Origin: a candidate division WWE3 bacterium
Lineage (GTDB): Bacteria; Patescibacteriota; WWE3; UBA101185; UBA10185
Direction: 5' to 3'
NCBI GenBank assembly: GCA_014729135.1
Contig: WJKK01000001.1
Span: 794,919-858,918 of the forward strand
DNA length: 64,000 nt
Part shown: piece by piece, positions 6,888-61,127 of the stretch
Layout of the letters: each line of letters opens with the position of its first letter
Numbering within the stretch: position 1 is the stretch's first letter
Made by a program: the position numbers and the translations under genes
The notes under the pieces: generated by a model
Databases searched by the model: none
Told to the model about the DNA's origin: nothing
Seen by the model: the letters and a program-made list of their open reading frames with translations, nothing else

Positions 6888-7006
6888 ATTCATAAAGATT
6901 ATACTAAGGCCGTCAAGTGATTGTCTAGGGGGTATATTCCAGTTAAAATAGAATCTCTTCCCATGTTTGCTTTTTTAGCAGACTTAGCAACGGCTTGGGT
7001 ATGTTA

Positions 7007-13436: not shown

Positions 13437-15224
13437 CTACACCCCGGGAAGGCCGCCATCAAAAACCTCCAGTAAAGAACCATCCAAACTCACCTCACTA
13501 CTCTGCATACTTGGGACAACAACATTCAAATCGGTTAACTCCCCCGTCTCACGACCCCTCTTTTTAGGAGAGGCTTTCACAACACACTCCAGGGACAACT
13601 CCATATCAAAAACTTCGGAAAAAACCGTCTCCACAATCCTGCGATTTTTTGTATATTCCAGGCGATCTTTGTGAAAGGCAAACTCCACCTCTAAGACCAC
13701 AGCATCCCCTTTGACTTCCACTGGCTCCGCTGCCTTTAGTAAAGCTCTTACCGAGTGATTATATTTGCGAGAGGATCTTAAAACGTCGTTCCATTTTTTG
13801 GCTATTTCGGAGGCGGTTATGTCAATTGGGGACTTTGTTTCAGCTTTTTTCGGGGAGGGGCCTTCACTCCCATCCGGCATCCTACTGCCATCTGCCATCC
13901 CACTTCCGTTTTCCAGCTCACTTACACCCGTCATCCTACTGGCCTCCGCCATTCCGCCTCCGTCTGTCATCCCGGACTTGCTCCGAGATTCGGGACCCTG
14001 ATTTTCATCAGGATGACAAGGTTTAGAGGCATCGGAAGGGTTTTCCTCCACAGGGGTGGGTTTACTGGAAGATCTCTCCTCCGTAGATGTGGAGATATTA
14101 GTCATACCTTTTCCTAGAAAAGGGACAGGCTTCTTAGAGGACTGTCCTCTTAAAGGACTGTCCCCTCCTCCACAAATCTCGGCAACGGCAAGCTCCAAAG
14201 GCAACGTCGCAATATTAGACTCCGCAATCTCATTGCGCGCCTGCAAAAACTTCCGCGTATAAAACACCAAATCCTCCACCGAAAAGCCGGCAGCCTGCTC
14301 CTCCATTAACGCTGCTACCTCCTCCGTAACGTCCGACAAAACACCCTTGGCCCCCGCCTGCACAAACAAAAGCGACTTCAAATACTCCAAAAGCTGATAA
14401 GACCAAACCTCCATGTCCACACCCGACGCAAACTTCTCCTCCAAAAACTCCAAAGCCGAAGCCGCCTCCCCCGCAACCAAAAACGCAACAAAATCATGAA
14501 ACTCAACATAAGACGAAAAACCAAACAAACTCTCAGGATCCAGACTCCCCTGAATCACCTGCTGCAACATCGTCTCCGCATCTCGATAACCACCAAAAGA
14601 CGCCTGCGCAATCTTCCGCAAAGTCGCTTCCGCCACCTCCTCGCCAACCCCCTCCTCCGAAGCAATCAAACCCAACTTGGCAACCAGCTGCTCCATGGAA
14701 GCGCGCCTAAAATTAAAAACCTGACAGCGCGACTTAATAGTATCCAAAACTTTGTGCGGCTCAGTTGTGCACAAAACAAACAGGGCATGCTCCGGCGGCT
14801 CCTCCAAAGTCTTAAGCAAGGCGTTAAAAGCCTCCTTGGTCAACATGTGAACCTCGTCAATTATATAAACTTTTTTCGTTCCTTGCGAGGGAGCCAGGCC
14901 AATTCGATCACGAAGATTGCGAATGTCATCAATTCCGCGATTACTGGCAGCATCAATTTCTATTAGGTCCAGAAAATTACCTTTTTTAATGGTCTTACAA
15001 TTTGGGCAGGTATCGCAAGGATCACCATTTGGCTGAATGTTTGTGCAGTTTGCAGCCTTAGCCAGTAAACGCGCGGTTGTAGTCTTACCGGTTCCACGAG
15101 GGCCAATGAAAAGGTAGGCGTGCGAAAGGTTCCCATTTTTTACCTGAGTAGCCAGTGCATCTGCAATGGGGTTTGGCTTAACAAGTTCGCTAAATTTTTG
15201 CGGTCGGTATTTTAGATAAAACAT
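13437..15224 (-). CDS. dnaX: DNA polymerase III subunit gamma/tau, with a repeat-laden C-terminal linker
   Basis: AAA+ Walker A FIGPRGTGKTTTARLLAKAANC and zinc module CDTCPNC. The C-terminal region (coding coordinates about 13850-14170) contains low-complexity peptide repeats encoded by three dispersed DNA repeat families. Confidence 0.9.
   Translation of the reverse strand: MFYLKYRPQKFSELVKPNPIADALATQVKNGNLSHAYLFIGPRGTGKTTTARLLAKAANCTNIQPNGDPCDTCPNCKTIKKGNFLDLIEIDAASNRGIDDIRNLRDRIGLAPSQGTKKVYIIDEVHMLTKEAFNALLKTLEEPPEHALFVLCTTEPHKVLDTIKSRCQVFNFRRASMEQLVAKLGLIASEEGVGEEVAEATLRKIAQASFGGYRDAETMLQQVIQGSLDPESLFGFSSYVEFHDFVAFLVAGEAASALEFLEEKFASGVDMEVWSYQLLEYLKSLLFVQAGAKGVLSDVTEEVAALMEEQAAGFSVEDLVFYTRKFLQARNEIAESNIATLPLELAVAEICGGGDSPLRGQSSKKPVPFLGKGMTNISTSTEERSSSKPTPVEENPSDASKPCHPDENQGPESRSKSGMTDGGGMAEASRMTGVSELENGSGMADGSRMPDGSEGPSPKKAETKSPIDITASEIAKKWNDVLRSSRKYNHSVRALLKAAEPVEVKGDAVVLEVEFAFHKDRLEYTKNRRIVETVFSEVFDMELSLECVVKASPKKRGRETGELTDLNVVVPSMQSSEVSLDGSLLEVFDGGLPGV
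14122..14166. repeat. REP palindrome cluster (GGGACAGGC..GGACTGTCC..GGACTGTCCCC) inside the dnaX coding sequence
   Basis: Same GGAC(A/T)GTCC units, 6-7 nt apart, as the RAYT-flanking REPs; translated in frame as GGGDSPLRGQSSKKPVPFLGKG. Confidence 0.8.
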
Positions 15225-29679: not shown

Positions 29680-31773
29680 TTATTCACGGTTCTCGGAAAA
29701 CCAGTAATCCAAGAGCGTGCGAGCAATAGGAGCAGCATCATCAGAACCCCCTCCCCCACCTTCCAAGAAAACCGTCAAAACAATTTCAGCATCCTCCAAG
29801 GGCCCCCAAACTGTAAACCAAGCATGCGTCCTTTCATTGCCTTGCGGATCAATATACTCAGAAGTTCCTGTCTTGCCGGCCAGCACCACTCCGTACTTTT
29901 CCGGAAAATCAAACACAGGGTAACCCGTTCCTCCCGGAGTAACCGCCCGTCGAAGCCCTTCACGAACCAAATCCAGAGTCTGCGGAGAAATTAAATCGCG
30001 CGCTAAAACCTCCTTTGAAGTTGCCTCCCCCGCCACCTCGGAAACCACACGAGGGCGCAGCAGCTCGCGCCCATTAGCAAAGTAAGAAGTCACCATATTC
30101 ACCTGCAAGGGAGTCGCCAAAAAGTCGCCCTGCCCAATGGAAGTGATGTAAGTGTCGCCCAAATACCAGTCTTTGTAGTCGCCATCAGGGACAAAGCCTG
30201 CCACTTCTCCCGGAATATCGATACCTGTTTTAGCGCCAAAGCCAAATTTTTTTGACCAATTGGAGATGCGGTCAATGCCTAGGCCTTCAATGTTGCCGTA
30301 GCCTCCTCCTATGGTGTAAAAGTAGGTGTCGTTGCTGACCTGGAGGGCTCTTAAGAGGTCCACTTGGCCATGCCCGTCGAGTTTCCAGTTTCTAAATGTG
30401 TAGCCTGCAACGGAAAGGTAACCGGGGTCGTTGATAGTGCTATAGGGTGTTATGGCGGATTCTTCGAGCGCTGCTGAGGCCATAACCATTTTATAGGTCG
30501 ATCCGGGAGGGTAGTTGGCGCCAATTGCTCTGTTGAAAAAGGGGTGGTTGTAGGTTTCTTCTAAGGTGGCAAGTTCGGCGGAGGTTACTCCTGAGACCAT
30601 TTTTTGGGCGTCAAAGGAGGGGTAGCTGGCTAGAGCAAGGACACCTCCGGTTTGTGGGTCTTGGGCTACAACGACTCCGGCGTCTGCTGTGGCTCCGGGG
30701 ATTTTTTCGTTTTCCGGAGTGGCGGGGCTGTTAGGGTCTGCGGAGGTGTTGGAGTTTTTGGAGGCGTCAACAGCTTTTTTCAGTTCTTCATAGGCTAGTT
30801 TTTGAAGGCCTATGTCGGCAAAAAGTTTAATGTTTTCGCCGGGAACGGGATCTTTGGTGTCAAACTCCCGGAGGCTTTCGTTGGAGGAGTTTACTTGAAT
30901 TAATCTTTGTCCGGAAATTCCTGTTAGTGGCTTGTTGTAGGAGGCTTCTAAGCCGGTTTTTCCTTCTATTAGTGGGGTTAGGCTTTCGTTGGAGAGGCCG
31001 GTGTAACCAAGGAGGTGTGCAAAGGCTTCGGGATAGTGGTAGTCGCGGGTGGGATAGGTTAGGACATCGATGGCGGGGACTTTTTGTGTTCCAAGGGAGT
31101 CCAGTAGTGAGGCGGATTCAAGCGAGAGGAGTTGATCTTTGTTAAGGTTCTGCGCAATTACAAGGGATTGAATTCCCGGTGTATCGAGTTGGGTGAGTTG
31201 AGGGACAGTCCTTTGAGGGGACAGTCCTTTCCAGGGACTGTCCTCTCCGAGGACAGTCCTCTTAAAGGACTGTCCCCTCCTCAGGTGATCGAGCGTGTCT
31301 GAGACTAGGCGTTTACAAAGAGTACGATCTTTACCCAAACTGCATCGGGACACATTAAGTACAAGGTTGAAAGTTGGGCGGTTTTGCGCAATTACTTCTC
31401 CTTTTTGATCAAAAATGACTCCTCGTGGGGCGGGAATTTCATAAGTACGTGTCCGATTTCTTTGAGCCAGTGCCTGATATTCCTTCGACTCCAAAACCTG
31501 TAATTTAAATGCTCGCGCAAAAAAAACTAAGAAACTTGCCAGCAATAAAAAAGTAAAAAACAAGAGGTGCCCATGAAAAGTTTTGCGACCGGAGTTAAAA
31601 TAGTCCTTACCTATTAGGGGATTAACCTCGTTTAAATGCGCACCCTCCCCTCCCCTTTTTAAACGGCTCCTTTTTGAACCGGACTTTCCCGGGTATTTAA
31701 AACGCAATAACCTCTTTAAAAAAGACTCCCCACCCTTTAACTCCTCAAAAAAGTTCGGATTTATTGCGTTCAT
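29680..31773 (-). CDS. mrdA: class B penicillin-binding protein 2 (elongasome transpeptidase), with an in-frame REP insertion
   Basis: SxxK (GSTYKM), SxN (VSNDTYF) and KTGT (AGKTGTSE) motifs; sits in the mreBCD-pbp2 arrangement. RRGQSFKRTVLGEDSPWKGLSPQRTVPQL is encoded by five copies of the GGAC(A/T)GTCC palindrome at 31202-31277. Confidence 0.85.
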   Translation of the reverse strand: MNAINPNFFEELKGGESFLKRLLRFKYPGKSGSKRSRLKRGGEGAHLNEVNPLIGKDYFNSGRKTFHGHLLFFTFLLLASFLVFFARAFKLQVLESKEYQALAQRNRTRTYEIPAPRGVIFDQKGEVIAQNRPTFNLVLNVSRCSLGKDRTLCKRLVSDTLDHLRRGQSFKRTVLGEDSPWKGLSPQRTVPQLTQLDTPGIQSLVIAQNLNKDQLLSLESASLLDSLGTQKVPAIDVLTYPTRDYHYPEAFAHLLGYTGLSNESLTPLIEGKTGLEASYNKPLTGISGQRLIQVNSSNESLREFDTKDPVPGENIKLFADIGLQKLAYEELKKAVDASKNSNTSADPNSPATPENEKIPGATADAGVVVAQDPQTGGVLALASYPSFDAQKMVSGVTSAELATLEETYNHPFFNRAIGANYPPGSTYKMVMASAALEESAITPYSTINDPGYLSVAGYTFRNWKLDGHGQVDLLRALQVSNDTYFYTIGGGYGNIEGLGIDRISNWSKKFGFGAKTGIDIPGEVAGFVPDGDYKDWYLGDTYITSIGQGDFLATPLQVNMVTSYFANGRELLRPRVVSEVAGEATSKEVLARDLISPQTLDLVREGLRRAVTPGGTGYPVFDFPEKYGVVLAGKTGTSEYIDPQGNERTHAWFTVWGPLEDAEIVLTVFLEGGGGGSDDAAPIARTLLDYWFSENRE
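31202..31277. repeat. REP palindrome array (5 copies of GGAC(A/T)GTCC) inside the mrdA coding sequence
   Basis: gggacagtcc tttgag gggacagtcc tttcca gggactgtcc tctccga ggacagtcc tcttaaa ggactgtcccc, read directly. Confidence 0.85.
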
Positions 31774-33403: not shown

Positions 33404-34477
33404 CTAATCCACACGCACCAAATCCAAAAGCATCTCATCCTCCAGCAACTTCCCACAGCCGCGAACAACACAAGAAATAGGATCCTCCGCCAAATGAACA
33501 GGTGCTTTAAGCTCTTTGGACAATAAAAGATCCAGATTCTTAAGCTGAGAAGTGCCTCCGGCCAAAACAGCACCGGAAGACAAGATGTCAGGCATCAACT
33601 CTGCAGGAGTGGCCTCTATCACATCCTTGACTGCATTGATAATAAGGGTCAGGGAACCTTTCATGGCCTCCTCCAGCTCCTCAGGGGATGCCTTAATTGA
33701 ACGCGGTAATCCGGTTTTTAAATCCCGACCCTGAAAAACCAAAGCGTCCTGCACACCTTCACGCGAGGCCTCCAAACGACTCCCTCCGGAAACCCCCTCC
33801 ACTAAAGCGCTGCCAAAAGCACACTTCAAAGCCTCCGCTGTCCCCTCCCCCAACAAAAGATTGTATTTTTTGCGGGCATAATTAACGATGTCCATGTCCA
33901 ACTGATCCCCCGCCACACGAAGCGAATTACTTATAACCATGCCTCCCAAAGAGATGACTGCAATTTCCGTGGTGCCGCCGCCAATGTCCACAATCAAATT
34001 TCCGGCTGCTTTCTTAACGGGAAGACCTGCTCCAATTGCTGCAGCCATGGGTTCTTCCACTAAAATGGCTTTGCGCGCACCGGCGGTTAGCGCGGAGTCA
34101 ATTACGGCCTTCCTTTCCACTGAGGTCAATCCTGAGGGAACACCTATGACGATTTTGGGCTTGGGATATTTGGGGAATTTTGTGGGAATGGCGTTAACGG
34201 ATTTTATGAAGTGCTCTAGCATTTTTTCGGTGGCGTAAAAGTCTGAGATGACGCCGTTGCGAAGGGGTCTGATGGCTTCTAATGTTTGAGGGGTTTTGCC
34301 TAGCATCTTTTTGGCCTCAGCTCCAACGGCCAAAATCTGTTTCGTTTTTTTGTGGATGGTTACTACGCTGGGCTCGTTTATGAGGATGCCTTTACCTTTG
34401 ACATAAACCAGTATGTTGGCGGTTCCAAGGTCTATCCCAATATCGTAGGAAATCTTGCTCAAAATTTTATCAATCAT
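33404..34477 (-). CDS. mreB: rod shape-determining protein MreB (actin homolog)
   Basis: DIGIDLGTANILVYVKGKGILINEPSVV and the other actin-fold motifs. Confidence 0.9.
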   Translation of the reverse strand: MIDKILSKISYDIGIDLGTANILVYVKGKGILINEPSVVTIHKKTKQILAVGAEAKKMLGKTPQTLEAIRPLRNGVISDFYATEKMLEHFIKSVNAIPTKFPKYPKPKIVIGVPSGLTSVERKAVIDSALTAGARKAILVEEPMAAAIGAGLPVKKAAGNLIVDIGGGTTEIAVISLGGMVISNSLRVAGDQLDMDIVNYARKKYNLLLGEGTAEALKCAFGSALVEGVSGGSRLEASREGVQDALVFQGRDLKTGLPRSIKASPEELEEAMKGSLTLIINAVKDVIEATPAELMPDILSSGAVLAGGTSQLKNLDLLLSKELKAPVHLAEDPISCVVRGCGKLLEDEMLLDLVRVD

Positions 34478-34494: not shown

Positions 34495-35276
34495 GGGGAC
34501 AGTCCTCTTAAAGGACTGTCCCCTTTTGAAATTCTAGTTTAGCTAGAATATTGGTTTGAAAAAGGATTATAGGATGAAAAAAAGCGGAGATTAATCTTCG
34601 AGATTTACAAATCTTTTATACCCGGGACCGGACTTTTTGAAGTGCTGAAGCACTTCCGAAGTATCCAAAAACTTAAAACTTTTCCCGGGCGAAACAGCAG
34701 AATCCTGATAAAAAGAAAAGCTGGAATAGGGATAAGAAAAGATCTCTTTGTCTAATTCCAAGGGATTGCGGTGAATGTAGCGACTAACATGCAAAAGATC
34801 GGCGGAATCCTTAATAAGACGAGCCTTATACCGACCCTCCAACAAACGACCTCTAAGAGCGTATCTGCCTTTACAATAAAAAACATAACTGAGCTGTAAG
34901 CTTTTCATGAAGCGCGACATGTCATATTCTTCCTTTTGTTTTAAAAGAAGGTGAAAATGCGTGGGCATCAGACAAAAAGCATAAAGAGATATTTTTTCGT
35001 GGAAAGTTTTTCTATTACTTATAGGATTATTTCTTTCTAAAAGCTTATCCCTCAAAAAACTAAGGAAAACTTTGTAATCTTGTTCATCGCGAAACAACAA
35101 ACCTCGATCATTGGCTCTATTATAGGCGTGATAGATACCCTCTTCTTGATAATCTTTTAGAGCATTCTTGGCGGGCATATTTAAATCCTACTCAATATTT
35201 AGTCCAATTCAAGTGCCTATATTCTAGTTAAATTGGAATCTCTAAAAAAGGGACAGTCCTCTTAAAGGACTGTCCC
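34495..35276 (-). mobile_element. RAYT (REP-associated tyrosine transposase) gene flanked on both sides by REP hairpins
   Basis: REP GGGACAGTCCTCTTAAAGGACTGTCCC at 34495-34524 and 35250-35276 brackets the tnpA-like ORF. Confidence 0.65.
34591..35178 (-). CDS. REP-associated tyrosine transposase (IS200/IS605-like Y1 HUH transposase)
   Basis: HUH motif PTHFHLLLK; catalytic Tyr region SRYIHRNPLE (the YxxxNP pattern of RAYTs); N-terminal YHAYNRANDRGLLF. Confidence 0.7.
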   Translation of the reverse strand: MPAKNALKDYQEEGIYHAYNRANDRGLLFRDEQDYKVFLSFLRDKLLERNNPISNRKTFHEKISLYAFCLMPTHFHLLLKQKEEYDMSRFMKSLQLSYVFYCKGRYALRGRLLEGRYKARLIKDSADLLHVSRYIHRNPLELDKEIFSYPYSSFSFYQDSAVSPGKSFKFLDTSEVLQHFKKSGPGYKRFVNLED

Positions 35277-35302: not shown

Positions 35303-35827
35303 ATGGCAATAGTAACCATAGTAAAGGCGCCAAACCCCCTCCTGGATAAACCAACCGAAACAGTGGAACAGTTTGGCAAAAACACAGAAACCGCCGAAAC
35401 AATCAAGGACCTCAAAGACACACTAGACGCTGCAAGTGAACCCGAAGGAGCAGGTCTATCCGCAAATCAAATAGGCATCAACAAAAACGTCTGTGTAGTT
35501 CGCAAATTCTTCCAAGACCCAATGGACCCAAACACGCAACTCTTTGAAGAAAAAGTCCTCATTAACCCCAAAATCACAAACTCCTCAAAAGAGACAGAAA
35601 CCGACTGGGAAGGCTGCCTTAGCGTCCCCGACACCTACGGCAAAGTCACCCGCCCAACAAAAATCCAAATAACCTATCAAGACGAATCAAGCACCTCTCA
35701 AAAACTTATAGCAGAAGGATTTTACGCCAGAGTCATCCAACATGAAATCGACCACCTCAATGGAATCCTCTTTACCTCCAAAGTCGAAGGAAACACCGTC
35801 ACCGGAGACTATTTCAAGGACAACTAA
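35303..35827 (+). CDS. def: peptide deformylase
   Basis: Motifs GAGLSANQIG, EGCLSVPD and HEIDHLNG. Confidence 0.9.
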   Translation: MAIVTIVKAPNPLLDKPTETVEQFGKNTETAETIKDLKDTLDAASEPEGAGLSANQIGINKNVCVVRKFFQDPMDPNTQLFEEKVLINPKITNSSKETETDWEGCLSVPDTYGKVTRPTKIQITYQDESSTSQKLIAEGFYARVIQHEIDHLNGILFTSKVEGNTVTGDYFKDN

Positions 35828-38191: not shown

Positions 38192-38266
38192 GCCTGGATA
38201 GCTCAGTGGTAGAGCAATCCCCTTGTAAGGGATAGGTCGTGAGTTCAAATCTCACTCCAGGCTCCA
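38192..38266 (+). tRNA. tRNA-Thr (anticodon TGT)
   Basis: Manual cloverleaf: acceptor GCCTGGA/TCCAGGC, D GCTC-AGTGGTA-GAGC, anticodon stem ATCCC/GGGAT with loop CTTGTAA, T-loop TTCAAAT, CCA encoded. Confidence 0.85.
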
Positions 38267-38579
38267 GAGGCCCCGCTGAAAGCGGGGGCGATGGCTTAAC
38301 AAAACACGAGCTTTCCTTTTGGACAGCAATGTTCAAGCAAAGTGTTTTGTTATGCTCGAAATCCGCCGAAGGCGGATTGAGAAACTTGTGATAAATTGAA
38401 AACATAAGCACCCACCCCAAGCCGGGGTACCGAACTGTAAAGTTTTTGCAAAAAACTTTATCAGCTTAAGCAAACGCGTAGCGTTTGTTTATGGCTAAAA
38501 AGTAGCAAAGCTACTTTTTATAGTCTTGAGTACCTTGTCAAGGTTTGTGATAAATTGAAAATATGAATACCTACCTCTA

Positions 38580-38665
38580 GCCGGGGTACCGAAGCGGTCA
38601 AACGGAACTGTCTGTAAAACAGTCGGCATTAGCCTACATAGGTTCGAATCCTATCCCCGGCACCA
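38580..38665 (+). tRNA. tRNA-Tyr (anticodon GTA) with a long variable arm
   Basis: Acceptor GCCGGGG/CCCCGGC, anticodon stem ACTGT/ACAGT with loop CTGTAAA, variable arm CGGCATTAGCCTAC, T-loop TTCGAAT, CCA encoded. Confidence 0.85.
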
Positions 38666-38804
38666 GCAAAAATCGCGAGTGAAGCGAGTATTTTTGCTGG
38701 CTCAAGCAAATGTGAGCGAATGCGAACATTTGTTTGTTGCCTCACAAGTTGTACTCAACTTGTGAAAGTGTGAAAGAAACGGTTTTATTAGATACAAGTT
38801 TTTA

Positions 38805-38880
38805 GCCCACTTAGCTCAGTTGGTAGAGCAACTCCATGGTAAGGAGTAGGTCGGCAGTTCAATTCTGCCAGTGGGCTCCA
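38805..38880 (+). tRNA. tRNA-Thr (anticodon GGT)
   Basis: Acceptor GCCCACT/AGTGGGC, anticodon stem ACTCC/GGAGT with loop ATGGTAA, T-loop TTCAATT, CCA encoded. Confidence 0.8.
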
Positions 38881-38934
38881 GAAAATCCACAACCACATTC
38901 CGCAAACAACCACCCAAGAATTTGCACCAAAAAC

Positions 38935-38966
38935 AGGTTGCTCGAGAACTCAAATGCATCTATAAT
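38935..38966 (+). promoter_or_regulatory. sigma70-like promoter upstream of tRNA-Trp (TTGCTC-N17-TATAAT)
   Basis: ttgctc gagaactcaaatgcatc tataat, read directly, about 25 nt upstream of the tRNA-Trp 5' end. Confidence 0.45.
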
Positions 38967-38990
38967 GCTTACGCTAAAAAGGTTTTACAA

Positions 38991-39064
38991 GGGGACGTCG
39001 GTTAGTGGTAAACCATGGGACTCCAAATCCCAAACCGGGGGTTCGATTCCCTCCGTCCCTGCCA
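38991..39064 (+). tRNA. tRNA-Trp (anticodon CCA)
   Basis: Acceptor GGGGACG/CGTCCCT (G1-U72 wobble), D GGTT-AGTGGTA-AACC, anticodon stem TGGGA/TCCCA with loop CTCCAAA, T-loop TTCGATT, CCA encoded. Confidence 0.8.
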
Positions 39065-40658: not shown

Positions 40659-43600
40659 TCAACGGACAACAGCAGAGCCACCCATACCATTCCCGCGAAC
40701 ATCCGGTGAATGTGACTCAAAAGCCTGAGCCGGGCGCAAACGATACTCCCCCGGAACAGAAGCCTTTACCAAGTACACATATTCATAAACTCCCGCCGGT
40801 AAATAATCCAACAACAAACGCATAGAGTCCGGATACATCTCAAATCCCGAAGCATAAAAAGGAAAACCCTTGGAAGCCCCTTCCGAAACTGAATCCCTAA
40901 ACTCAGAAGGCCCAAGCCGAGACTCATTTTCTAAAGTATCATTAACCCCCTCCAAACCGGCTGGGAAATAATCCTCAACCACAACATGCCTGCGCAAATT
41001 GGGGACAGCCAAAGTTAACCGAACTGCATACGACTCCCCCACTTCAAAATTTAGGGGCGAAACCTTGTTACCCTGCAAATCAAAATATTCGCGAACAATT
41101 CCAATGCCCTCAGAATCTGCAACAATTTGATCAAAAGGCAAAATCTTATTTACAACCAAACTATAATAAGCACTTCCACCGTCAACAAGTTTAATTTGTG
41201 CACGCTTTTCACCGGCCGAAAGGTCTGACAAAGGAATCTCACCAAAAACAGAACTCCGGCCTTCCTTAAAGTTCAACGTGCCGGACAAAATTTCCGCTTC
41301 AACAGCTTCAACAGCTTCAGCAGAATCAGCAGAATCAGCGTCCTCCCCTACCACCACCCGAACATCAGAGGGTCTAAACTTAACCCCACGAGCAAGTCCA
41401 TTTTCCAACAAAGCAGCAACTCTTAAGGCATCCGAATAATTAGCAAAATAAGAGGCTTCACCCTGCAGGAGGTGATTCACCGCCAAATCCGCTACCAACG
41501 AATCGGGATCCGTCTTGTTAAACGCCCTCAAAATCACAGCAGTTGTGCTCATGTCATTTCCGTAAAACCAAACGGCCTCCGGATAATTCCAAAAGATTCT
41601 TTGAGATGCCAAGTCCGCACTTTGCAACAGGTCTGACTTCAATTGATCAACATATTTACCCCATTTACCTCCCTGCGCCTTCATAGCAAGAATCATGTAA
41701 CCCTTGGAAACATCCTTTAACGTAGAACGCCGATTGTACAAATAAGACAAGGTGCCGCTGGTATCACGCCCTACAGAGGACAAAGCAAAGGCAATCATAG
41801 CAGCCTGATCAGGTAGGAAATGCTGAACCTCAATAAGCTTAGTATTCAGGTAGTTAGCAGCCCTTTCAACCCCAACGGAATCCACGCTAAAACCGACTTC
41901 TTGAGCCCCGGATAAAGCTACAAGCACCTGCGAAGTTACATAAGTAGAACTTTCACGACTTCTTGACGTATATCCCCATCCCCCGTCCGAAAGGCGATAA
42001 TCCTCCAATGAGTAAATTGTTTTCTCAATTTTATCAGCATAAGACTGTACAACCCCCTCATCCGAACTCTCCACCTCCTTTTTATATTTATAAATGTGCA
42101 AATTAACCAACAACTCCCCCGCTAAACTCAAACTGGTTTCACAAGGATCCTCCTCCAAAAACTCGTCCGCGATGTCCTCGGCCATAGTCAAAGGCGCTCC
42201 AAAAACAGAGGCCTTCACACTTCCAAAACGGGTGTCTGCAACATCCTCAATAGTAAAAACTTCATAAGCAACATTCTTTACATTATTTGAAAACGACTCT
42301 ACGACCTCTAATCCATAAAGATACACCTCTAAAGCCTCTCCCAAGCGATCGACAAGAACATCCCCTTCGTAAACCTCAAAAGTTATATTTACCGCCTCTA
42401 AATCATTTCTAGCGGGAACTTCCACAGGAAAGGATATCTTCTGCTCAGAACCCCCTGCTACATCAACTACGGAGGAGCTGGCGCCCGAAAAAACTAAATC
42501 AGGAGCAAGTGCCTTAACAGAATATCGTCGAGAGACTTCGGTATTATTGTGAACTACCAAACCAAGGTCAAATTTATCCGTACTGCGAACAAATCTTGGT
42601 AAAGCAGATAAAGCAAAGCTGTCCAGGCTTGCCGTAAAAGTGAAGACAGCTTGACCAAATCCGTCAGAAGTACGCGCCAGTCCAAGAAGATTCCAGCGAG
42701 TAATGCTGTCAGGCAACTCAAAATCTATCACAGCTTTACCGGAGGCATCTGTTGTCACATCCACCTCCCAATGCGCTACATCCGAAAAGTTTTCACGGGT
42801 CAAATCAATATAGTCACCCCCCGCGCCACCCTTAGCTCCGGAGCCTCCCTTGGCGCCAAGCTCCGTATTAGCATTAACACGATCCCAAGAAGCCGTTAAA
42901 GTTTGTGTAGTATTAACACCCCAAAATCTCTTTGAATAAAAGTGATTAAACGCATTCCTACGCTTAACGGGACTCATCGTAAGAAGCGCATCATCCACCA
43001 GCGCCAATGTTAGATTTGCAGCAGCAACAGGATTCCCCTCTTTATCCGTTACTGTAATTGTGGCAGTACCCGAATCCCCCGGAGCATAGCCCTCCTCCCC
43101 TGGCTCTATATCGACATTCAAAAGATGATCAGTAACATCCACGTTTAAAACCTTCACACCCATTCTAAACTCCGGCGGATTGTAAACATCAGTTCCCGGT
43201 GCAACCAACAGAGCATTAACGTAGGCATTGGGAGCATAAACATCTTTAACCAAAAGCTTCATCAGATCTGCACTGGAGTCAGGACGCGCAATCTTGTAAT
43301 CTAAAACTCCTTCAGCCTCTACCGTTAGTAAAACCAAAGGCTCTTCCAAAGTAGAAGTCGTAATTATTTCGGCAGTATCTCCTATGGAATATTCTTCTTT
43401 ATCTAAAATCAACTTTACTCTGTCATGGTTTTCGCGCTTCCAATAGCCGGAATCCCGGGAAGCCACATAAAACGTGGTATCTGCAGCAGAAACATTTCCA
43501 ACGGAATCGGTGCTTACAACTTCTATAATGTGCAAGCCTCCTCCGGAGGGCATGAAAGCATAAGAAGCATCGCCCTGATCATCCGTTGTAACCCGATCCG

Positions 43601-46600
43601 AAGTAACTAAAGTATCCTCATAACTGGTTTTGTAATAGGAGCTGCCCTCGTTATCCTTAGTCTTAACCCTGAAATACTTGCGATTGTAAACGTTAACCGT
43701 AGCCGGAATACCGGCTTTATCCTCGGCAAAGACATCCACAGTCTTAATAGCAAACTCGGACTCCTCCCCCTCCACACCAACATAGGAAAGGGGCTTAACT
43801 CCGGTGTAGTGCTCAGCCATGTGGGCTACAAATTCGGTAGTTCCCGTAAAACGCTTACCACTTTCACCGGTAACATCAGCTTCAAAAGTGTAGATTTTGC
43901 TCATGCCGGAGTCCCCCGAAGTGTTAACGCCATAACTGAAAACGCCTAAGTTGTCGGTAGTTCCGGATCCCGAGGAAACTTTCTCCTCCTCAAAACCGCG
44001 CCAAACAAGGTCATCCCCAAAATAACGCTTTGAAGAATAAAACGAGTATCCGGAAAGTCCCGAAGGATTAAACACATATTTACGCTTATATAAACGGTAA
44101 TCTAAAGGACGCCCACTTAGAGGAGCACCATAAAAGTAATTAGCCTTTGCTTGCAATGAAACGTTTTGCCCATGAATAACTTCCTTGGCAGGGCCTTGTA
44201 CAGTCACCTCAAACTCGGGAACCTTATATTCCTCCACGCGAACATCTGCTGTGTATAAAACATCCTTGGAAGAGGCTACGTTTTTAGTGAACTGAAGCTT
44301 TAAGATGTAAGCACCGGGAGTTAAATCCTCGGGAAGCTGAACCGTCCCTTTAATGGAATCAGTAACATTTTCAAAAAGATGCGTGTAAATGGGGGCATCA
44401 CTGGAGTAGCGCTTTTCCAGTTGCATGTACAAGTTTAGACCGGGAGTAGCGCTTTCAGGGGTGCCGTCCTCACCGGAGTTTACTGAGGCGTCTGAATCTG
44501 CAATGTAATCAAAAGAAGTGGGAGTGTTTCGTCGAACAAAAGCATTAAAATTAAGCTCATTTCCGGGACGATACAAAGTCTTATCCGTAACAATAAACCC
44601 TTTGTAATCCAAAGCTCCATAGGAGGCAGCCGTATAACCATATTCAGCCTCATCAAACTGGTGCGGAGCTATCCCTTCATGCCAGCTACCAAGGCTCACG
44701 CCAAATTGGTCACCCTTTTCAACCAGAACAAAGCTGTAATCCCCTATTAGAGGTTCTTTTTGCCACCAAACTCCATCGGAGTTAGTTACTCCGGTTTTCA
44801 CTGGCTCTAAAAGATTCTTATCATGCGTAATTCCTAAAGAACGGCACATTTCGGGATCTTTAAACACTTTAACCGTATTGCCTTCCCTAACATCTCTGTT
44901 GTCAAGACTTGCAGCCCATACAAAAAAGCCGTCCTGATAGTCTTTCACGGTAACTGCTGTGTTTGTAACTGCAAAAACAAATCCGGTGTAATCTTTTCCG
45001 TCGTTAGCTAAAACGTCCAAATAGTAAAAACCGGGATCCAAATCCTTTTTAGCATCGCGCTCAAAACTAAACAACACATCTGTAGGAACATTAAGATTCA
45101 AGTCAAGAGGAGTGTCCCAAGAACCTTCCAAAGTGATGTTTTCTTTTTCCAGCCAGGCTCGATTTATGCTGCCCAAGGAATACTGACAGGTTGTGGCCAA
45201 ACTTTGAAACTCACTTGTTGTAAGCGAATAAAGATTGTATGTAAGCTTGTCTGCATTTGTCACACGAGTAATAACACGTGTATCTAAGTTGTCCGAAAAG
45301 TTCTTAATGCGGGAGTAGCCGGTGTTCATGGTTACAGCTATCTCATAGGGCTTGGTTGTAAATTCAAATGTGTGAGTTGCTCCAATGGCGCGGCCATAGC
45401 GATCCGGCGTGCCGGCAGGAATGGTTAAACGATACGTTGTGGAAGGTTTTAAATAACGGTTTAAAACAAAGGTCTTCCCACGAGAACGCGTGTAGCCCAA
45501 CGCCTCGACAGAACCGGGAGAGTCTCCGGTGAGGGCCGTTAGAGATAGGTGCTTTTCCAAAGTCTCACCATCCATGGGAGAATTGAAGTTTAAGTTTAAG
45601 TTGTCCTGATAACTAATTTCCTGACCGTCTTTAAACTTTCCTTGCCCTTTTGGCAGTGAGATGCTGTTAAACCCGGGAGCATCTGCCGTCTCAAAAGTGT
45701 AAGCGTATTCCGTGGGAGCAGGCGCATTTCCGCCATAACCTAAAAACCCTGAATTAACACGCGCGGAATATTCCGTTAAAGGCTTCAAGGTGCCAACCGG
45801 ATAGAAGTCGACTTTTTGCTGCCACTGCTCTTCCCAATCGTTGTAGTAGTAAGACTTGTTGTCTGCAGAGGTACGGTTAGAAAAGACAGCACGATAAGGA
45901 ACAGCCTCTTTTGTAGCCTTCTCCGTAAAAGTAAAGTTATCTAAAAGACTTTGCCGATCTATAGCCTGATTAAAATAAAAAGTAATAGGGCCTTGCGGGT
46001 TTATGTCACTAGGTTTTGAAGCACCTCCGGAGACGCCTCCTAAATCACCTTCTGCATACAAAACGGCCGGGACAAAGTTGGTGAATTCAAATGAGTAGCC
46101 CTTCTTAAGAACTCCTCCGTCTAAAGATTTCAGGTCTTGGTTTAACGAAACTGTGTATTTCATGCCCTTTTCAAGATTTTCGGGCTCTATTAGATAGGCA
46201 GCACTACCTACCCATTTTCCGGTACCTTCTATTTCGGGGGATATCGTTATGAAGGAGGCTATTTCATCGTTGTAGTAGTTTGCGGAGGTGGTGAGGTCTA
46301 TCTTGGGAGTGGCTCCGGAGGCATCAGGCCGTTGCATAGACTTTGAAAACATTAGCACAATTTTTTCTGCAGGCTCCTGTGTATTTCCGGTAGGAGATGC
46401 AAAAGCTACTTGCGGGTGAGCTATGGTTGTAAAAGCGGAGGTGTAGTCCTTTGCAAGTCCTCTTGAGTTTTTTGCACGCGCTTCTTTGGTTAGACGCACA
46501 GTTACTAAAGTGCTTCTACTTAAAGACTCGTTTGGCGTAAATGTAAGTGTAGAGGGGCTATCCCAGGAGATTGTTCCGGCAACTTCTTTAGAGTGAGTCT

Positions 46601-47111
46601 TTTGTGGGGGCATGTTTTGAGGAGAATCGGTAGGCGCAAGGTCCTTAAGATCATTAAGCGCAGCGTCTAAACCGTTTAAAGTGGGATTAGTGCTTTGAAT
46701 AGAATTTTCAACAGGAGCCGGTTGCTGAAGCACAGTTAAAGCTTGTTCAACACTTGCCTTCGCCATTTCCTCCGAGAAGGAAAGGGTTATTGAAGGTTTA
46801 AGTGAAACCTCCTCATCGCCTGCTGCTGGAGAAATTGAAACCACCTGAGGGCACTGCAAATAATTATCAAAGACGTAAATACCCGCTCTGAGAACCAAAA
46901 ATGGAAGAAGTATCAATCCAAAGATCAGACTACTTTTTTTAGGGTTTTGGCGAATGTACTTGAAAAAGGACAGTATCTTTGGAAATAGTTTCTCCGTGAG
47001 AATTAATGAAATTTGCTTCCAAAGTGAAAGTACCCTCTTGCGGATCCCATAAAAAGTGGGTTGAATCGTTTTTTGAATCTTCTTTGTAAAGCTTTCCCAG
47101 GTACTGTTCAT
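40659..47111 (-). CDS. bacterial alpha-2-macroglobulin-family protein (YfhM-like), about 2150 aa, N-terminally membrane-anchored
   Basis: The size, the N-terminal signal anchor, the many Ig-like/MG-like repeats and the position immediately downstream of a PBP1c gene all match the conserved A2M-PbpC pair. No canonical CxEQ thioester motif was seen. The annotated start overlaps the pbpC 3' end by 173 nt, so the true start may lie downstream. Confidence 0.75.
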   Translation of the reverse strand: MNSTWESFTKKIQKTIQPTFYGIRKRVLSLWKQISLILTEKLFPKILSFFKYIRQNPKKSSLIFGLILLPFLVLRAGIYVFDNYLQCPQVVSISPAAGDEEVSLKPSITLSFSEEMAKASVEQALTVLQQPAPVENSIQSTNPTLNGLDAALNDLKDLAPTDSPQNMPPQKTHSKEVAGTISWDSPSTLTFTPNESLSRSTLVTVRLTKEARAKNSRGLAKDYTSAFTTIAHPQVAFASPTGNTQEPAEKIVLMFSKSMQRPDASGATPKIDLTTSANYYNDEIASFITISPEIEGTGKWVGSAAYLIEPENLEKGMKYTVSLNQDLKSLDGGVLKKGYSFEFTNFVPAVLYAEGDLGGVSGGASKPSDINPQGPITFYFNQAIDRQSLLDNFTFTEKATKEAVPYRAVFSNRTSADNKSYYYNDWEEQWQQKVDFYPVGTLKPLTEYSARVNSGFLGYGGNAPAPTEYAYTFETADAPGFNSISLPKGQGKFKDGQEISYQDNLNLNFNSPMDGETLEKHLSLTALTGDSPGSVEALGYTRSRGKTFVLNRYLKPSTTYRLTIPAGTPDRYGRAIGATHTFEFTTKPYEIAVTMNTGYSRIKNFSDNLDTRVITRVTNADKLTYNLYSLTTSEFQSLATTCQYSLGSINRAWLEKENITLEGSWDTPLDLNLNVPTDVLFSFERDAKKDLDPGFYYLDVLANDGKDYTGFVFAVTNTAVTVKDYQDGFFVWAASLDNRDVREGNTVKVFKDPEMCRSLGITHDKNLLEPVKTGVTNSDGVWWQKEPLIGDYSFVLVEKGDQFGVSLGSWHEGIAPHQFDEAEYGYTAASYGALDYKGFIVTDKTLYRPGNELNFNAFVRRNTPTSFDYIADSDASVNSGEDGTPESATPGLNLYMQLEKRYSSDAPIYTHLFENVTDSIKGTVQLPEDLTPGAYILKLQFTKNVASSKDVLYTADVRVEEYKVPEFEVTVQGPAKEVIHGQNVSLQAKANYFYGAPLSGRPLDYRLYKRKYVFNPSGLSGYSFYSSKRYFGDDLVWRGFEEEKVSSGSGTTDNLGVFSYGVNTSGDSGMSKIYTFEADVTGESGKRFTGTTEFVAHMAEHYTGVKPLSYVGVEGEESEFAIKTVDVFAEDKAGIPATVNVYNRKYFRVKTKDNEGSSYYKTSYEDTLVTSDRVTTDDQGDASYAFMPSGGGLHIIEVVSTDSVGNVSAADTTFYVASRDSGYWKRENHDRVKLILDKEEYSIGDTAEIITTSTLEEPLVLLTVEAEGVLDYKIARPDSSADLMKLLVKDVYAPNAYVNALLVAPGTDVYNPPEFRMGVKVLNVDVTDHLLNVDIEPGEEGYAPGDSGTATITVTDKEGNPVAAANLTLALVDDALLTMSPVKRRNAFNHFYSKRFWGVNTTQTLTASWDRVNANTELGAKGGSGAKGGAGGDYIDLTRENFSDVAHWEVDVTTDASGKAVIDFELPDSITRWNLLGLARTSDGFGQAVFTFTASLDSFALSALPRFVRSTDKFDLGLVVHNNTEVSRRYSVKALAPDLVFSGASSSVVDVAGGSEQKISFPVEVPARNDLEAVNITFEVYEGDVLVDRLGEALEVYLYGLEVVESFSNNVKNVAYEVFTIEDVADTRFGSVKASVFGAPLTMAEDIADEFLEEDPCETSLSLAGELLVNLHIYKYKKEVESSDEGVVQSYADKIEKTIYSLEDYRLSDGGWGYTSRSRESSTYVTSQVLVALSGAQEVGFSVDSVGVERAANYLNTKLIEVQHFLPDQAAMIAFALSSVGRDTSGTLSYLYNRRSTLKDVSKGYMILAMKAQGGKWGKYVDQLKSDLLQSADLASQRIFWNYPEAVWFYGNDMSTTAVILRAFNKTDPDSLVADLAVNHLLQGEASYFANYSDALRVAALLENGLARGVKFRPSDVRVVVGEDADSADSAEAVEAVEAEILSGTLNFKEGRSSVFGEIPLSDLSAGEKRAQIKLVDGGSAYYSLVVNKILPFDQIVADSEGIGIVREYFDLQGNKVSPLNFEVGESYAVRLTLAVPNLRRHVVVEDYFPAGLEGVNDTLENESRLGPSEFRDSVSEGASKGFPFYASGFEMYPDSMRLLLDYLPAGVYEYVYLVKASVPGEYRLRPAQAFESHSPDVRGNGMGGSAVVR

Positions 47112-49377
47112 TAAGTATGAATTCTACAGCAACAATGGAGTGGTTTCCAGAGAAATCCGGTTTTAGAGGGGGTTTTTCTTCCGGAAATCCCGACGTTTCG
47201 GTAGCGCCCCATTGAACTTCAAACTCCAGTTTTTCATAGGTCTCCTCCCCCGGAATTAAATAGTAGGTGCTGTTTTGAGGAGGGTTTGTTATGGCGGGCT
47301 TGTTTTGCTCCCCCTCACTGAGAGAAATGTCTTCCGGTTCTTGCTTTTGTGCTAATCTTTCCGAAGGAGGCTCCTCCCGATCCGAGTTAGAGGCGTATTC
47401 AGAATTAGAAAAGAGGGGCTTGTTTAAATGATCATAAGTAGTCAACATGACCTCCCTCCAAATTGGACCGGCACCTGTAACACCATCTATACGGGACATT
47501 GGCGCATTGTCCGTATTTCCAACCCACACACCCACCGCAAAGTCTTCAGGATAATCCTTTGTATAGCCTAAAGTCCAATTGTCATGCCAATCTGTTGTAG
47601 TGCCTGTTTTAGAAGCTGCGTTAAATGGAAGAACCAGAACGTTATTACGCCCAAAACCAAGCACTTTAGCAGAGGGGTTACTTAGGATGCTAAAGAGGGT
47701 GTTACTGACTTCAGTGGAGCGGTTACCCCAAACGGGAGTACCTTTGTCATACTTGGCCATAGACTCCGAGGAGGTACCGGGGCGCTCATAAAGAATGCTA
47801 CTTCCATCTGCAGCTAAAACCTTGCGTACAAAATAAGGCTTCTTATAATAACCGTCTCTACCTAAAGAAGCATACGCATTAGTTAGATTTAGCAGGGTTA
47901 CCTCTCCCCCACCTAAAGTTACACTTAAGCCATAACGCTCCGGGTGGTTTAAGTTGTGAAGGCCAAGTCGCTGAGCAGCTCCTACCATGTCGGCAACACC
48001 TACCATGTCCAATACTTTAACTGCGGGGAGATTTAGAGAGCTTGCTAAAGCTGTGTGCACGGGAACCTCTCCATTGAAAACACCATTATAATTGTGCGGT
48101 ACAAAGCTCTTGCCTTCCTTGTCCACAAAAACGGTTTTCTCATCTAAAATGGTGCCTTCGGGATCCAAAACACCTTCATAAAAGGCCTGACCATAGGTAA
48201 TGGGCTTTAAGGCTGAACCGGGCTGTCGCAAGGAGGTTGCAACGTTTACGGAACCATCAATCTCTTCGTCAAAATAATCAATGCTACCCACCATTGTAAG
48301 AATGGCGCTATCTTTGTTGCGTAAAATTACAACGGAAGAGTTAGAAAGCTTATGTTTGTCCCCTACGGATTTTACTTTGTAATAAGCCTGTTCCCAGGCG
48401 TTGTGAGCTAAAAAAGGATCAAGCGTTGTGTAAATTCGCAGACCCTCCTGTTGAGTGTCAGCCAGAAGGGAATCAGTTTCTGCAAGAGCATATTCTATAA
48501 AGTGCATCTTATTTCTTAAATCCTCTGAAGTTTTAACAAAGACTCCCAAAGGTAACTGCTGAAGTGTCTCAAGGTCTTCTGCAGAAAGATCCTGCTCTTT
48601 AGCCAACAAACTCAACACATGGTTACGACGTTCCTTTGCAGCCTCCGGTGAGGAAATGGGATCATAAACTTCCGGAGAGCTAATCATTCCGGCGAGCAAA
48701 GAAGCCTCCAGTGTAGAAAGATCGGAAGCGCTTTTATTAAAGTAATACTGCGAAGCTGCCTCTACTCCATAGCGCATGTTGCCCAAATAAACAGAGTTCA
48801 AATAGTACTCCAAGATTGCCTCTTTTGTATGGAAAAGCTCTAGGAACAGGGCGGAGTTTGCTTCGCGGATTTTGCGGAGGTACTTGTTGGCGGAGGGGTG
48901 GAAGAGGGAATCTTTGGCAACCTGCTGCGTAATAGTGCTACCTCCCGAAACGATATGGCCGACGGATATATTGGATTGAAGGGCACGAATTATTGCAATG
49001 GGATCAATGCCAAAGTGGGAATAAAAGCGTTTGTCTTCTAGTGTGATAACGGCATTTTTGAGCTTTTCCGAAATTTCAGTGGATTTTATGGGCGATTGGT
49101 AGCCTTCTGAATTTAGGATGGATTCGTAAATTAGGTTATCGTTGATGTCGTAGACCTTTACGGAGGGGTTGTATTTGCCAAAGTTTCTTAGTGTGAGAAG
49201 GCCGTCTAGAAGGAGTGTTAGTGTGAGGATTATTAGTAGTGTTGTGATTATTGGGAGTGTTGAAAATGGTCGGAAGGGTGTTTGCGGTATTGAGGTGATT
49301 TTTTTAAGGAGTGTTTGGAGGCTGTTTTTGAGGGTTTTTATGTAGGAGCCCGGCAGCTTCAGGTTCTTTAAGTGCAT
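46939..49377 (-). CDS. pbpC: penicillin-binding protein 1C (bifunctional GT51 transglycosylase/transpeptidase)
   Basis: GT51 motifs EDKRFYSHFGID and GGSTITQQVAK; transpeptidase motifs SALK (SxxK), SLN and KTGT. Confidence 0.85.
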   Translation of the reverse strand: MHLKNLKLPGSYIKTLKNSLQTLLKKITSIPQTPFRPFSTLPIITTLLIILTLTLLLDGLLTLRNFGKYNPSVKVYDINDNLIYESILNSEGYQSPIKSTEISEKLKNAVITLEDKRFYSHFGIDPIAIIRALQSNISVGHIVSGGSTITQQVAKDSLFHPSANKYLRKIREANSALFLELFHTKEAILEYYLNSVYLGNMRYGVEAASQYYFNKSASDLSTLEASLLAGMISSPEVYDPISSPEAAKERRNHVLSLLAKEQDLSAEDLETLQQLPLGVFVKTSEDLRNKMHFIEYALAETDSLLADTQQEGLRIYTTLDPFLAHNAWEQAYYKVKSVGDKHKLSNSSVVILRNKDSAILTMVGSIDYFDEEIDGSVNVATSLRQPGSALKPITYGQAFYEGVLDPEGTILDEKTVFVDKEGKSFVPHNYNGVFNGEVPVHTALASSLNLPAVKVLDMVGVADMVGAAQRLGLHNLNHPERYGLSVTLGGGEVTLLNLTNAYASLGRDGYYKKPYFVRKVLAADGSSILYERPGTSSESMAKYDKGTPVWGNRSTEVSNTLFSILSNPSAKVLGFGRNNVLVLPFNAASKTGTTTDWHDNWTLGYTKDYPEDFAVGVWVGNTDNAPMSRIDGVTGAGPIWREVMLTTYDHLNKPLFSNSEYASNSDREEPPSERLAQKQEPEDISLSEGEQNKPAITNPPQNSTYYLIPGEETYEKLEFEVQWGATETSGFPEEKPPLKPDFSGNHSIVAVEFILNEQYLGKLYKEDSKNDSTHFLWDPQEGTFTLEANFINSHGETISKDTVLFQVHSPKP

Positions 49378-58958: not shown

Positions 58959-59879
<921 letters not shown>

Positions 59880-61067: not shown

Positions 61068-61127
61068 GGGACAGGCTTCTAAGGGGACAGTCCTTTGAAA
61101 GGACTGTCCTCTCCGAGGACAGTCCCC
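61068..61127. repeat. REP palindrome array (4 copies), intergenic
   Basis: gggacaggc ttctaag gggacagtcc tttgaaa ggactgtcc tctccga ggacagtcccc. Confidence 0.85.

Follow-up and report, generated by a model that had tools for sequence, protein, structure and literature searches.

A Y1 HUH transposase relative bracketed by a dispersed palindromic repeat in a WWE3 bacterium

What kind of element is a small transposase-like gene that lies between mreB and def in a candidate division WWE3 bacterium, and is it tied to the hairpin found on both of its sides? We analysed this locus in a 64,000-nucleotide stretch of the 864-kb contig WJKK01000001.1 (assembly GCA_014729135.1), which we call the window and number from its first letter. 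A first-pass annotation of the letters had read the locus as a REP-associated tyrosine transposase (RAYT) gene bracketed by its own repetitive extragenic palindrome (REP) hairpins. Our analysis makes it likely that the locus is a unit of the TIRtron/REPtron type, in which a gene of the TIRYT branch, encoding a Y1 HUH single-stranded DNA (ssDNA) endonuclease, is bracketed by its cognate palindromic repeat.

The encoded protein is a relative of the Y1 HUH tyrosine transposases. The product of the open reading frame (ORF) at 34591-35178 is 195 aa long and 100% identical to hypothetical protein GF360_04220; only Y1_Tnp (PF01797) was found in it by Pfam, at 35 bits against a cut-off of 23. Its translation contains PTHFHLLLK with H74 and H76, SRYIHRNPLE with Y134, and a YSS tail. 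THFHLLLK as the HUH motif and SRYIHRNPLE as the tyrosine region had both been picked out by the first-pass annotation, and both are upheld by a family alignment of 33 sequences in which Y16, H17, N20, R21, H74, H76, Q81, Y134-I-H, N138-P139 and S152-S153 are invariant. The family is widespread in Patescibacteria, where homologues that are 36-53% identical and mostly 205-250 aa long are abundant, including in Woesebacteria and Beckwithbacteria. An AlphaFold2 (AF2) model of the protein (pLDDT 88.9) has as its best Foldseek match in the PDB 4er8, the complex of E. coli TnpA-REP with a REP hairpin (E 3.6e-7, TM 0.67); the IS608, ISDra2 and IS200 transposases rank behind it at E about 1e-3, and the fold also matches 2a6o and 2xqc. 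Searching the PDB with the family profile recovered ISDra2 TnpA at E 2.4e-4 and E. coli TnpA-REP at E 0.18; the single window sequence gave no match in the PDB.

The RAYT identity proposed by the first-pass annotation holds at the level of the superfamily and gives way below it. The hidden Markov model check it had suggested passes for Y1_Tnp and falls short for the NCBIfam model REP_Tyr_transpos (NF047646), which scores 39.8 bits against an equivalog cut-off of 80. Two hallmarks of canonical RAYTs described by Nunvar 2010 are also absent: the N-terminal Thr, at which place the family has YHxYNRG, and the NP(L/V)(R/K)xG motif after the tyrosine, where it has NPLELD. Class 2 TnpA-Y1 proteins, which are TnpA-REP-like, are defined by Y---NP and IS200 by Y---Q in a scheme that gives diagnostic motifs subclass by subclass and treats the TIRYTs of Di Nocera 2013 as its subclass 2.1 (Quentin 2018, PMC6006769). 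The window protein reads Y134-I-H-R-N-P, that is, Y---NP and not the Y---Q of IS200/IS605, and the family motifs NHFH, FQ, YIH[RL]NP and SS are those of class 2, with subclass 2.1 as the best fit. Reference sequences of both groups, RAYTs and TIRYTs, came from Additional file 5 to Di Nocera 2013 (PMC3733652), and we scored them with the family profile (hmmsearch). TIRYTs scored far above canonical RAYTs, with 113 bits for dau_2153, 111 for gbm_2474, 108 for rba_2408, 104 for sml_4509 and 100 for tkm_1558 versus 46 for pfs_3939, 22 for sml_2816 and 15 for E. coli b228. The window protein itself is 30-37% identical to rba_2408, dau_2153 and gbm_2474 over 126-141 core residues. The terminal inverted repeats (TIRs) flanking TIRYTs have the consensus GGGGWSAS (Di Nocera 2013, PMC3733652); this is matched by GGGGACAG at 34495, on the outer edge of one hairpin, with its complement at 34523, and at 7/8 positions by GGGACAG at 35250. 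Judged by its sequence, the protein belongs to the TIRYT branch of the RAYT superfamily and not to the canonical GTAG-REP RAYTs, and the TIRYT/TIRtron group is probably the equivalent of TnpA-Y1 subclass 2.1 in Quentin 2018.

The gene is bracketed by one hairpin. GGGACAGTCC-TCTTAAA-GGACTGTCCC occurs exactly at 34496-34522 and at 35250-35276, the left copy being extended to GGGG...CCCC (34495-34523), which bears out the identical bracketing hairpin of the first-pass annotation; 68 bp separate the stop codon from one hairpin and 71 bp the other hairpin from the start codon. As ssDNA the two fold at -15.6 kcal/mol (z = -7.1; 34495-34523) and -14.7 kcal/mol (z = -8.7; 35250-35276). The underlying unit, GGACWGTCC, has 14 exact matches in the window versus 0.35 expected, a number reached in 0/100 shuffles. 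A relaxed search for doublets returned 12, every one at 16-bp spacing, where shuffles gave 0-1. They are confined to five sites, namely the two flanking hairpins and arrays of three units at 14122-14165, five at 31202-31277 and four at 61068-61127. The 9-mers with a central A and a central T are reverse complements of each other, so that an A-T or T-A pair of units forms a perfect hairpin, and folding of the longer arrays as ssDNA gives nested hairpins (-18 to -32 kcal/mol). All arrays begin with (G)GGGACAG and finish with GTCCC(C), all five sites have one orientation in common (GC skew is uniformly negative across the window), and identical or near-identical blocks of 25-33 nt are common to arrays 17-47 kb apart. 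Rfam matched four tRNAs in the window and nothing at the arrays. The recurrence of the 9-bp unit at 14122, 31202 and 61068 claimed by the first-pass annotation is therefore real, but the first two of these sites are not extragenic.

The arrays at 14122 and 31202 lie in frame within dnaX and a gene for PBP2, and both are read in the sense direction. With a period of 16 nt, consecutive units are translated in all three frames, giving GQS, RTV, DSP and GLS. The dnaX array sits at the boundary of domains III and IV (gamma/tau), after GGAGGAGGGG and immediately past the conserved end of domain III, where homologues carry an unrelated linker. Both alternative frames meet stop codons inside this array; a search for a programmed-frameshift signal turned up no slippery heptamer in it, AAAAAAG coming no nearer than codons 80, 117 and 459, and co-option of the array for a truncated gamma-like product is speculation. 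In PBP2, a 17-aa block GEDSPWKGLSPQRTVPQ is missing from 13/13 of the closest homologues in an alignment (49-69% identity), and a partial PBP2 from the relative L122 has an identical gap where the window protein has its repeat-coded block. We rejected the possibility that the intragenic arrays are ancient coding sequence: the PBP2 block is present in 0/13 homologues, and at the DNA level the arrays hardly differ from the intergenic hairpins. REPs in frame within genes are already known, and many of the genes concerned serve replication and repair (Di Nocera 2013, PMC3733652; Quentin 2018, PMC6006769). PBP2 has two more lineage-specific inserts relative to most close homologues, LLDSLGTQK (residues about 225-233) and ASKNSNTSADPNSPATPENEKIPG (about 338-360). 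The third array is intergenic and, with its promoter-like site, precedes a + strand ORF that leaves the window; upstream of it, 59850-61050 is a stretch of about 1.2 kb with no ORF >88 aa and no Rfam match.

Bracketing by a repeat is a property of the whole family. Our sample comprised 80 metagenome loci found with the family alignment together with loci retrieved by exact protein look-up. A sequence of at least 10 nt common to the upstream and downstream flanks was present at 55/70 homologue loci for which both flanks were available versus 13/181 shifted controls, and GC-rich perfect hairpins of at least 8 bp were 8-fold enriched in the 200-bp flanks (1.10 vs 0.135 per kb). Distant copies of the flanking repeat occurred at 16/55 bracketed loci, mostly among loci >10 kb (14 of about 21 long loci), and copies inside the Y1 gene itself at 29/55. 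The in-gene copies are translated in frame at two hot spots, ahead of the HUH strand and past the Y motif, and account for the variable inserts in the family alignment; in one locus (L150), CCTGCAGGGCCAGGCCCTGCAGG encodes both SLQGQALQA and LPAGPGPAG. Such in-gene copies have been reported for subclass 2.4 and not for 2.1 (Quentin 2018, PMC6006769). The flanking repeats are lineage specific in sequence, as in CCTGCAGGGC-cag-GCCCTGCAGG, TGACAGGG..., AGGTCCGTCCT... and GGCCAGGCC....

The same association is seen among the WWE3 relatives and from the side of the DNA. Stem changes are compensated between relatives, as in GGACAGTCC, GGCCAGGCC and the 9-mer of L215, which is that of the window with its centre pair flipped. 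L120 has GGCCTGTCC-N7-GGACTGTCC on both sides of the gene and L216 has GGACAGTCC-N7-GGACTGTCC; L122 and L123 have GGCCWGGCC hairpins, a double change that preserves the palindrome. In L213 and L214, which lack the gene, 16.6 and 20 kb of sequence are free of such hairpins. GTDB genomes were also scanned blind, as DNA, for GGACWGTCC-N7-GGACWGTCC, a loose pattern; this found at least 119 loci, and the WWE3 genome was not among the matches listed. Among these, 4/119 loci carry a Y1 homologue, and at three of them a TIRYT homologue is immediately flanked by GGGGACWGTCCCC doublets with a spacing of 15-17 nt and by the GGGGWSAS motif; these three are from Planctomycetota (L034), Aminicenantes (L087) and Microgenomates (L089). 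Further doublet copies lie on other contigs (L021, L037, L041) of those same metagenome-assembled genomes (MAGs). Family-wide bracketing, the WWE3 relatives and the blind scan are three independent lines that tie the repeat to the gene.

Also among the matches listed, the doublet recurs on many contigs of single genomes: Oxalobacteraceae UBA6704 (8 loci: L004, L024, L028, L039, L070, L080, L085, L098), a Myxococcaceae MAG (6: L001, L008, L074, L079, L093, L108) and a Gammaproteobacteria MAG (5: L015, L057, L075, L101, L113). This recurrence suggests high-copy repeat families of like type in those three genomes.

Table 1. Coordinates of the gene, its flanking repeats and the array-bearing genes in the window
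Feature	Position	Strand	Description
Y1 HUH endonuclease/transposase-like gene, TIRYT-type	34591-35178	-	Evidence: ORF, Pfam, family alignment, AF2 model, Foldseek
Gene-3' hairpin GGGGACAGTCC-TCTTAAA-GGACTGTCCCC	34495-34523		18 bp upstream of mreB start; begins with GGGGWSAS motif (GGGGACAG)
Gene-5' hairpin GGGACAGTCC-TCTTAAA-GGACTGTCCC	35250-35276		26 bp upstream of def start
Inner 19-bp dyad ATTCTAGTTTAGCTAGAAT	34531-34549		Between gene stop and hairpin; TAGAAT -10-like box towards mreB
Inner 19-bp dyad ATTCTAGTTAAATTGGAAT	35221-35239		Between hairpin and gene start; kept upstream of homologues in L120, L122, L215, L216
dnaX (DNA polymerase III gamma/tau), array host	13437-15224	-	Pfam DNA_pol3_delta2, gamma3, DnaX_C
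Three-unit array in frame in dnaX, first unit degenerate	14122-14165		Encodes residues 353-368 (GGGDSPLRGQSSKKPV)
PBP2 (mrdA-like) gene, array host	29680-31773	-	
Five-unit array in frame in PBP2 gene	31202-31277		Encodes residues about 165-191; nested fold -31.9 kcal/mol, z -7.1
Four-unit intergenic array, first unit degenerate	61068-61127		About 40 bp upstream of TTGACT-17-TACTAT promoter-like site

The position of the gene between mreB and def, as the first-pass annotation had it, agrees with the ORF coordinates: mreB (33404-34477, -) lies on one side, followed downstream by the MreC gene, an ORF of 160 aa and the PBP2 gene, and def (35303-35827, +) lies on the other, followed by fmt. Identities of MreB, Def and Fmt divide the relatives into two clades, one with the window, L120 and L213 and the other with L122, L214 and L215. 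The cassette occupies the def-mreB spacer in members of both (the window, L120, L122/L123 and L215), sharing the orientation of mreB in the first clade and that of def in the second, and one member of each clade (L213 and L214) has an empty spacer, of 44 and 104 bp. A conserved mreB leader, GCTAAACTC, and a box at def, TGGTAAAAT, lie immediately outside the hairpins, so the hairpins mark the ends of the cassette. Between relatives the Y1 protein is 47-55% identical versus 72-88% for MreB; rapid evolution of RAYTs was noted by Nunvar 2010. Long residence with one inversion and two losses is the simplest reading of this pattern, although the cassette may instead have inserted repeatedly at this one place or may still be mobile. 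Because the flanks are near-perfect palindromes, they are direct and inverted repeats of each other at once and could drive inversion by recombination. In L216, a 53%-identical cassette with the same 9-mer hairpins occupies a different site, upstream of a PBP1-like gene. L213, with its empty spacer, and L216 both come from run SRR24635347; if they derive from one organism, the cassette has moved. In L122 (3043-3065) and L123 (285-307) the upstream hairpin falls inside the 5' end of mreB as called, at 385 aa versus about 350 aa in other relatives (357 in the window). The mreB start there is probably called too early; possibly the hairpin is translated.

Between each hairpin and the gene lies an inner 19-bp dyad with the consensus ATTCTAGTTnAnnTRGAAT, carrying back-to-back TAGAAT boxes and conserved in WWE3-type cassettes. 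The dyad occurs at two further places in the window, 6936-6954 (upstream of rpsF) and 7105-7123 (inside the 3' end of ychF), and counting both strands has 11 matches versus 1.6 expected. Because it is present at rpsF and ychF too, it is probably a promoter or a regulator/operator site of the WWE3 genome and not part of the dispersed repeat. We rejected the dyad as part of the mobile unit, given its occurrence at 6936 and 7105 without hairpins. We likewise rejected the flanking hairpins as terminators, on a negative terminator scan and the location of two arrays inside genes.

How would such a unit work? The repeat consists of GGGGAC-W-GTCCCC units 16 nt apart, with adjacent units pairing into a hairpin. 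By homology with TnpA-REP and IS608 TnpA, the protein would bind this hairpin on ssDNA, for example at a replication fork, and cleave and rejoin the strand beside it through Tyr134, with His74 and His76 holding a metal ion. Hairpin units would thereby be copied to new places, and the copies that survive would be those in spacers and in tolerant loops or linkers in which the frame stays open, such as those of DnaX and PBP2 or, among the relatives, of the Y1 protein itself. Phased arrays similar to bacterial interspersed mosaic elements (BIMEs) may grow by insertion beside existing units or by slippage. Binding, cleavage, the single-stranded copying route and any present-day activity are inferred parts of this model.

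Several features weigh against assigning the locus to an active unit of the TIRtron/REPtron type. Neither strand of the flanking hairpins has the GT[AG]G head or guide tetranucleotide, the flanks reading ...CAGAG directly before GGGGACAG and ...AAAAA directly before GGGACAG. The hairpins are in direct orientation, with loop TCTTAAA on the + strand in both, as in IS200/IS605 and versus the inverted arrangement of classical REPtrons; near-perfect palindromy leaves this orientation weakly defined. Published TIRYTs have a long C-terminal tail that is missing from the window protein, whose alignment to the dau, gbm and rba proteins ends at the WSS motif. Subclass 2.1 has an extra conserved C-terminal helix-turn-helix-like domain and a median length of 238 aa (Quentin 2018, PMC6006769); the window protein, at 195 aa with PF01797 alone, has no such domain. 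Finally, the residue preceding HUH is T and not N/D in WWE3-type proteins, and the W/F-Q motif is swapped for LE in the window protein; on these two substitutions, the window protein may have lost activity.

The orientation of the hairpins leads to one rival, in which the whole 0.78-kb hairpin-gene-hairpin cassette is an autonomous IS200/IS605-like insertion sequence (IS), the hairpins being its ends and the arrays by-products or decayed ends. Like IS200/IS605 ends, the hairpins lie on one strand in like orientation; the cassette is cleanly present or absent at def-mreB, the empty sites of L213 and L214 retaining no leftover hairpin; L216 has a 53%-identical copy with hairpins alike elsewhere; and the two WWE3 clades differ in orientation. 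We nevertheless consider an autonomous IS improbable. The gene has one copy in the 64-kb window, and in relatives covering up to 24 contigs a single place per lineage. The window ORF list has no tnpB-like ORF adjoining it. The tyrosine motif is Y---NP (class 2) and not the Y---Q of IS200 (Quentin 2018), and the fold is nearer to TnpA-REP than to IS608 or ISDra2. The proteins encoded by cassettes in one and the same place have diverged by about 50%, which speaks for long residence and not recent hopping, and solo arrays outnumber gene copies and have a multi-unit structure unlike IS ends.

That the hairpins are host regulatory structures (terminators, stabilisers of mRNA 5' ends or operators) that flank by chance a gene whose protein does not act on them is less probable still. 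A short T run follows each hairpin towards the gene (TTTT past 34523 on +, TTTTTT past 35250 on -), mreB transcripts from a promoter-like TTCAAA-18-TAGAAT would begin at the hairpin, and a promoter-like site lies just downstream of the 61068 array; against these stand the terminator scan, which calls neither flanking hairpin, the 2/5 sites that lie in essential coding sequences in the sense direction, the lineage-specific bracket that tracks the gene across Patescibacteria and other phyla, and the relatives without the RAYT gene, which have no hairpins at the same promoters. A reading that we rate as unlikely, and yet well above these two, accepts the association and holds that the protein has ceased to move the repeats and is a domesticated ssDNA-processing enzyme with a host function, the arrays growing by slippage or recombination between 16-nt phased palindromes. 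Conservation of the family across Patescibacteria with very small genomes, one fixed position in each lineage, and a 16-nt phasing with sub-blocks common to arrays that fits local duplication all agree with domestication, and RAYTs have been argued to be co-opted by their hosts (Bertels 2017). However, blocks of 25-33 nt common to arrays 17-47 kb apart call for some copying in trans, and copies have reached the coding sequences of unrelated genes. Domestication overlaps with the TIRtron/REPtron-type unit that we prefer and does not exclude it.

A more far-reaching synthesis, to which we give little weight, joins these observations: Patescibacteria would broadly carry a short TIRYT-type enzyme that writes hairpins in frame into proteins (its own gene at about half of the loci; here also DnaX and PBP2), and would over long periods supply minimal genomes with protein insertions, with the cassette still excisable and invertible and the dnaX array co-opted for a truncated gamma-like product. 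Excision and inversion are suggested by the clean presence or absence and both orientations of the cassette at def-mreB.

REP/RAYT and TIR/TIRYT systems have so far come almost wholly from Proteobacteria, Cyanobacteria, Bacteroidetes, Acidobacteria and Planctomycetes, and our literature searches found no description of either RAYT or TIRYT systems in Patescibacteria. The element is thus of a known type in a bacterial group for which we found no description, with variant features that include in-frame arrays in two essential genes. Retention of a bracketed Y1 gene in genomes <1 Mb suggests a system that either is lost only with great difficulty or benefits its host. The locus, which combines a 195-aa enzyme and a 27-nt hairpin with inserts in two essential proteins and with naturally empty sites in relatives, offers a compact test case for the spread of such repeats and for the tolerance of proteins towards them. 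For annotation, peptides encoded by hairpins account for variable inserts both in these 'transposases' and in the housekeeping proteins of the lineages concerned. Elsewhere the window contains a cluster of four tRNAs (38192-39064; Thr-TGT, Tyr-GTA, Thr-GGT, Trp-CCA) and two very long overlapping - strand ORFs of 2150 aa and 812 aa (40659-49377).

Among known systems, the TIRYT/TIRtron (Di Nocera 2013, PMC3733652) is the best match in sequence, at 100-113 bits and 30-37% identity of the window protein over the core. Common to both are the motifs YH..NRG, LMP(N)HFH, Y.H.NP and the (Y/W)SS tail, GGGGWSAS in the flanking repeats (GGGGACAG in the window), and self-complementary flanking repeats of moderate abundance that occur in clusters, as for S. 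maltophilia ORF 1152; the Planctomycetota and Aminicenantes TIRYT homologues likewise have GGGGACWGTCCCC doublets at 15-17 nt spacing. By contrast, the window protein has 195 aa versus 216-238 and no C-terminal GRP..G...F....GRPRK tail, its flanks are perfect hairpins in direct orientation where TIRYTs have simple inverted TIRs, its host is a candidate-phyla-radiation bacterium, and 29/55 relatives have in-gene repeat copies, a feature of subclass 2.4.

Canonical RAYT/REP systems (REPtron and REPIN, including E. coli YafM/TnpA-REP, Pseudomonas and Stenotrophomonas; Nunvar 2010, Bertels and Rainey 2011, Messing 2012) resemble the WWE3 system in their Y1 HUH fold, with 4er8 as the best match, in a gene bracketed by a dispersed hairpin repeat, in BIME-like clusters of alternating units, in gene-repeat covariation, in a gene that evolves faster than its neighbours, and probably in low copy number and stable position. 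They differ in that the window system lacks the GT[AG]G head and the RAYT-specific residues, has flanks that are not inverted, and scores below the NCBIfam cut-off, canonical RAYTs reaching 15-46 bits with the family profile. Rickettsia palindromic elements (RPEs) and the REPs that lie within genes for replication and repair (Di Nocera 2013) are also short palindromic repeats in frame in functional genes, as here in dnaX and PBP2, whereas the window repeat has an identifiable cognate Y1 gene and 16-nt phased units read in all three frames. IS200/IS605 elements (IS608, ISDra2) have in common with the window the HUH/Tyr core and subterminal hairpins on one strand, all five repeat sites of the window having one orientation; the window differs in Y---NP versus Y---Q, the lack of tnpB, a single gene copy in its 64 kb, and weaker structural and profile matches. 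The system would work like a REPtron, its sequence and TIR motif place it with TIRtrons, and it is set apart from these by a short protein, perfect direct hairpin flanks, strict 16-nt arrays and frequent in-frame copies in its own gene and in essential genes.

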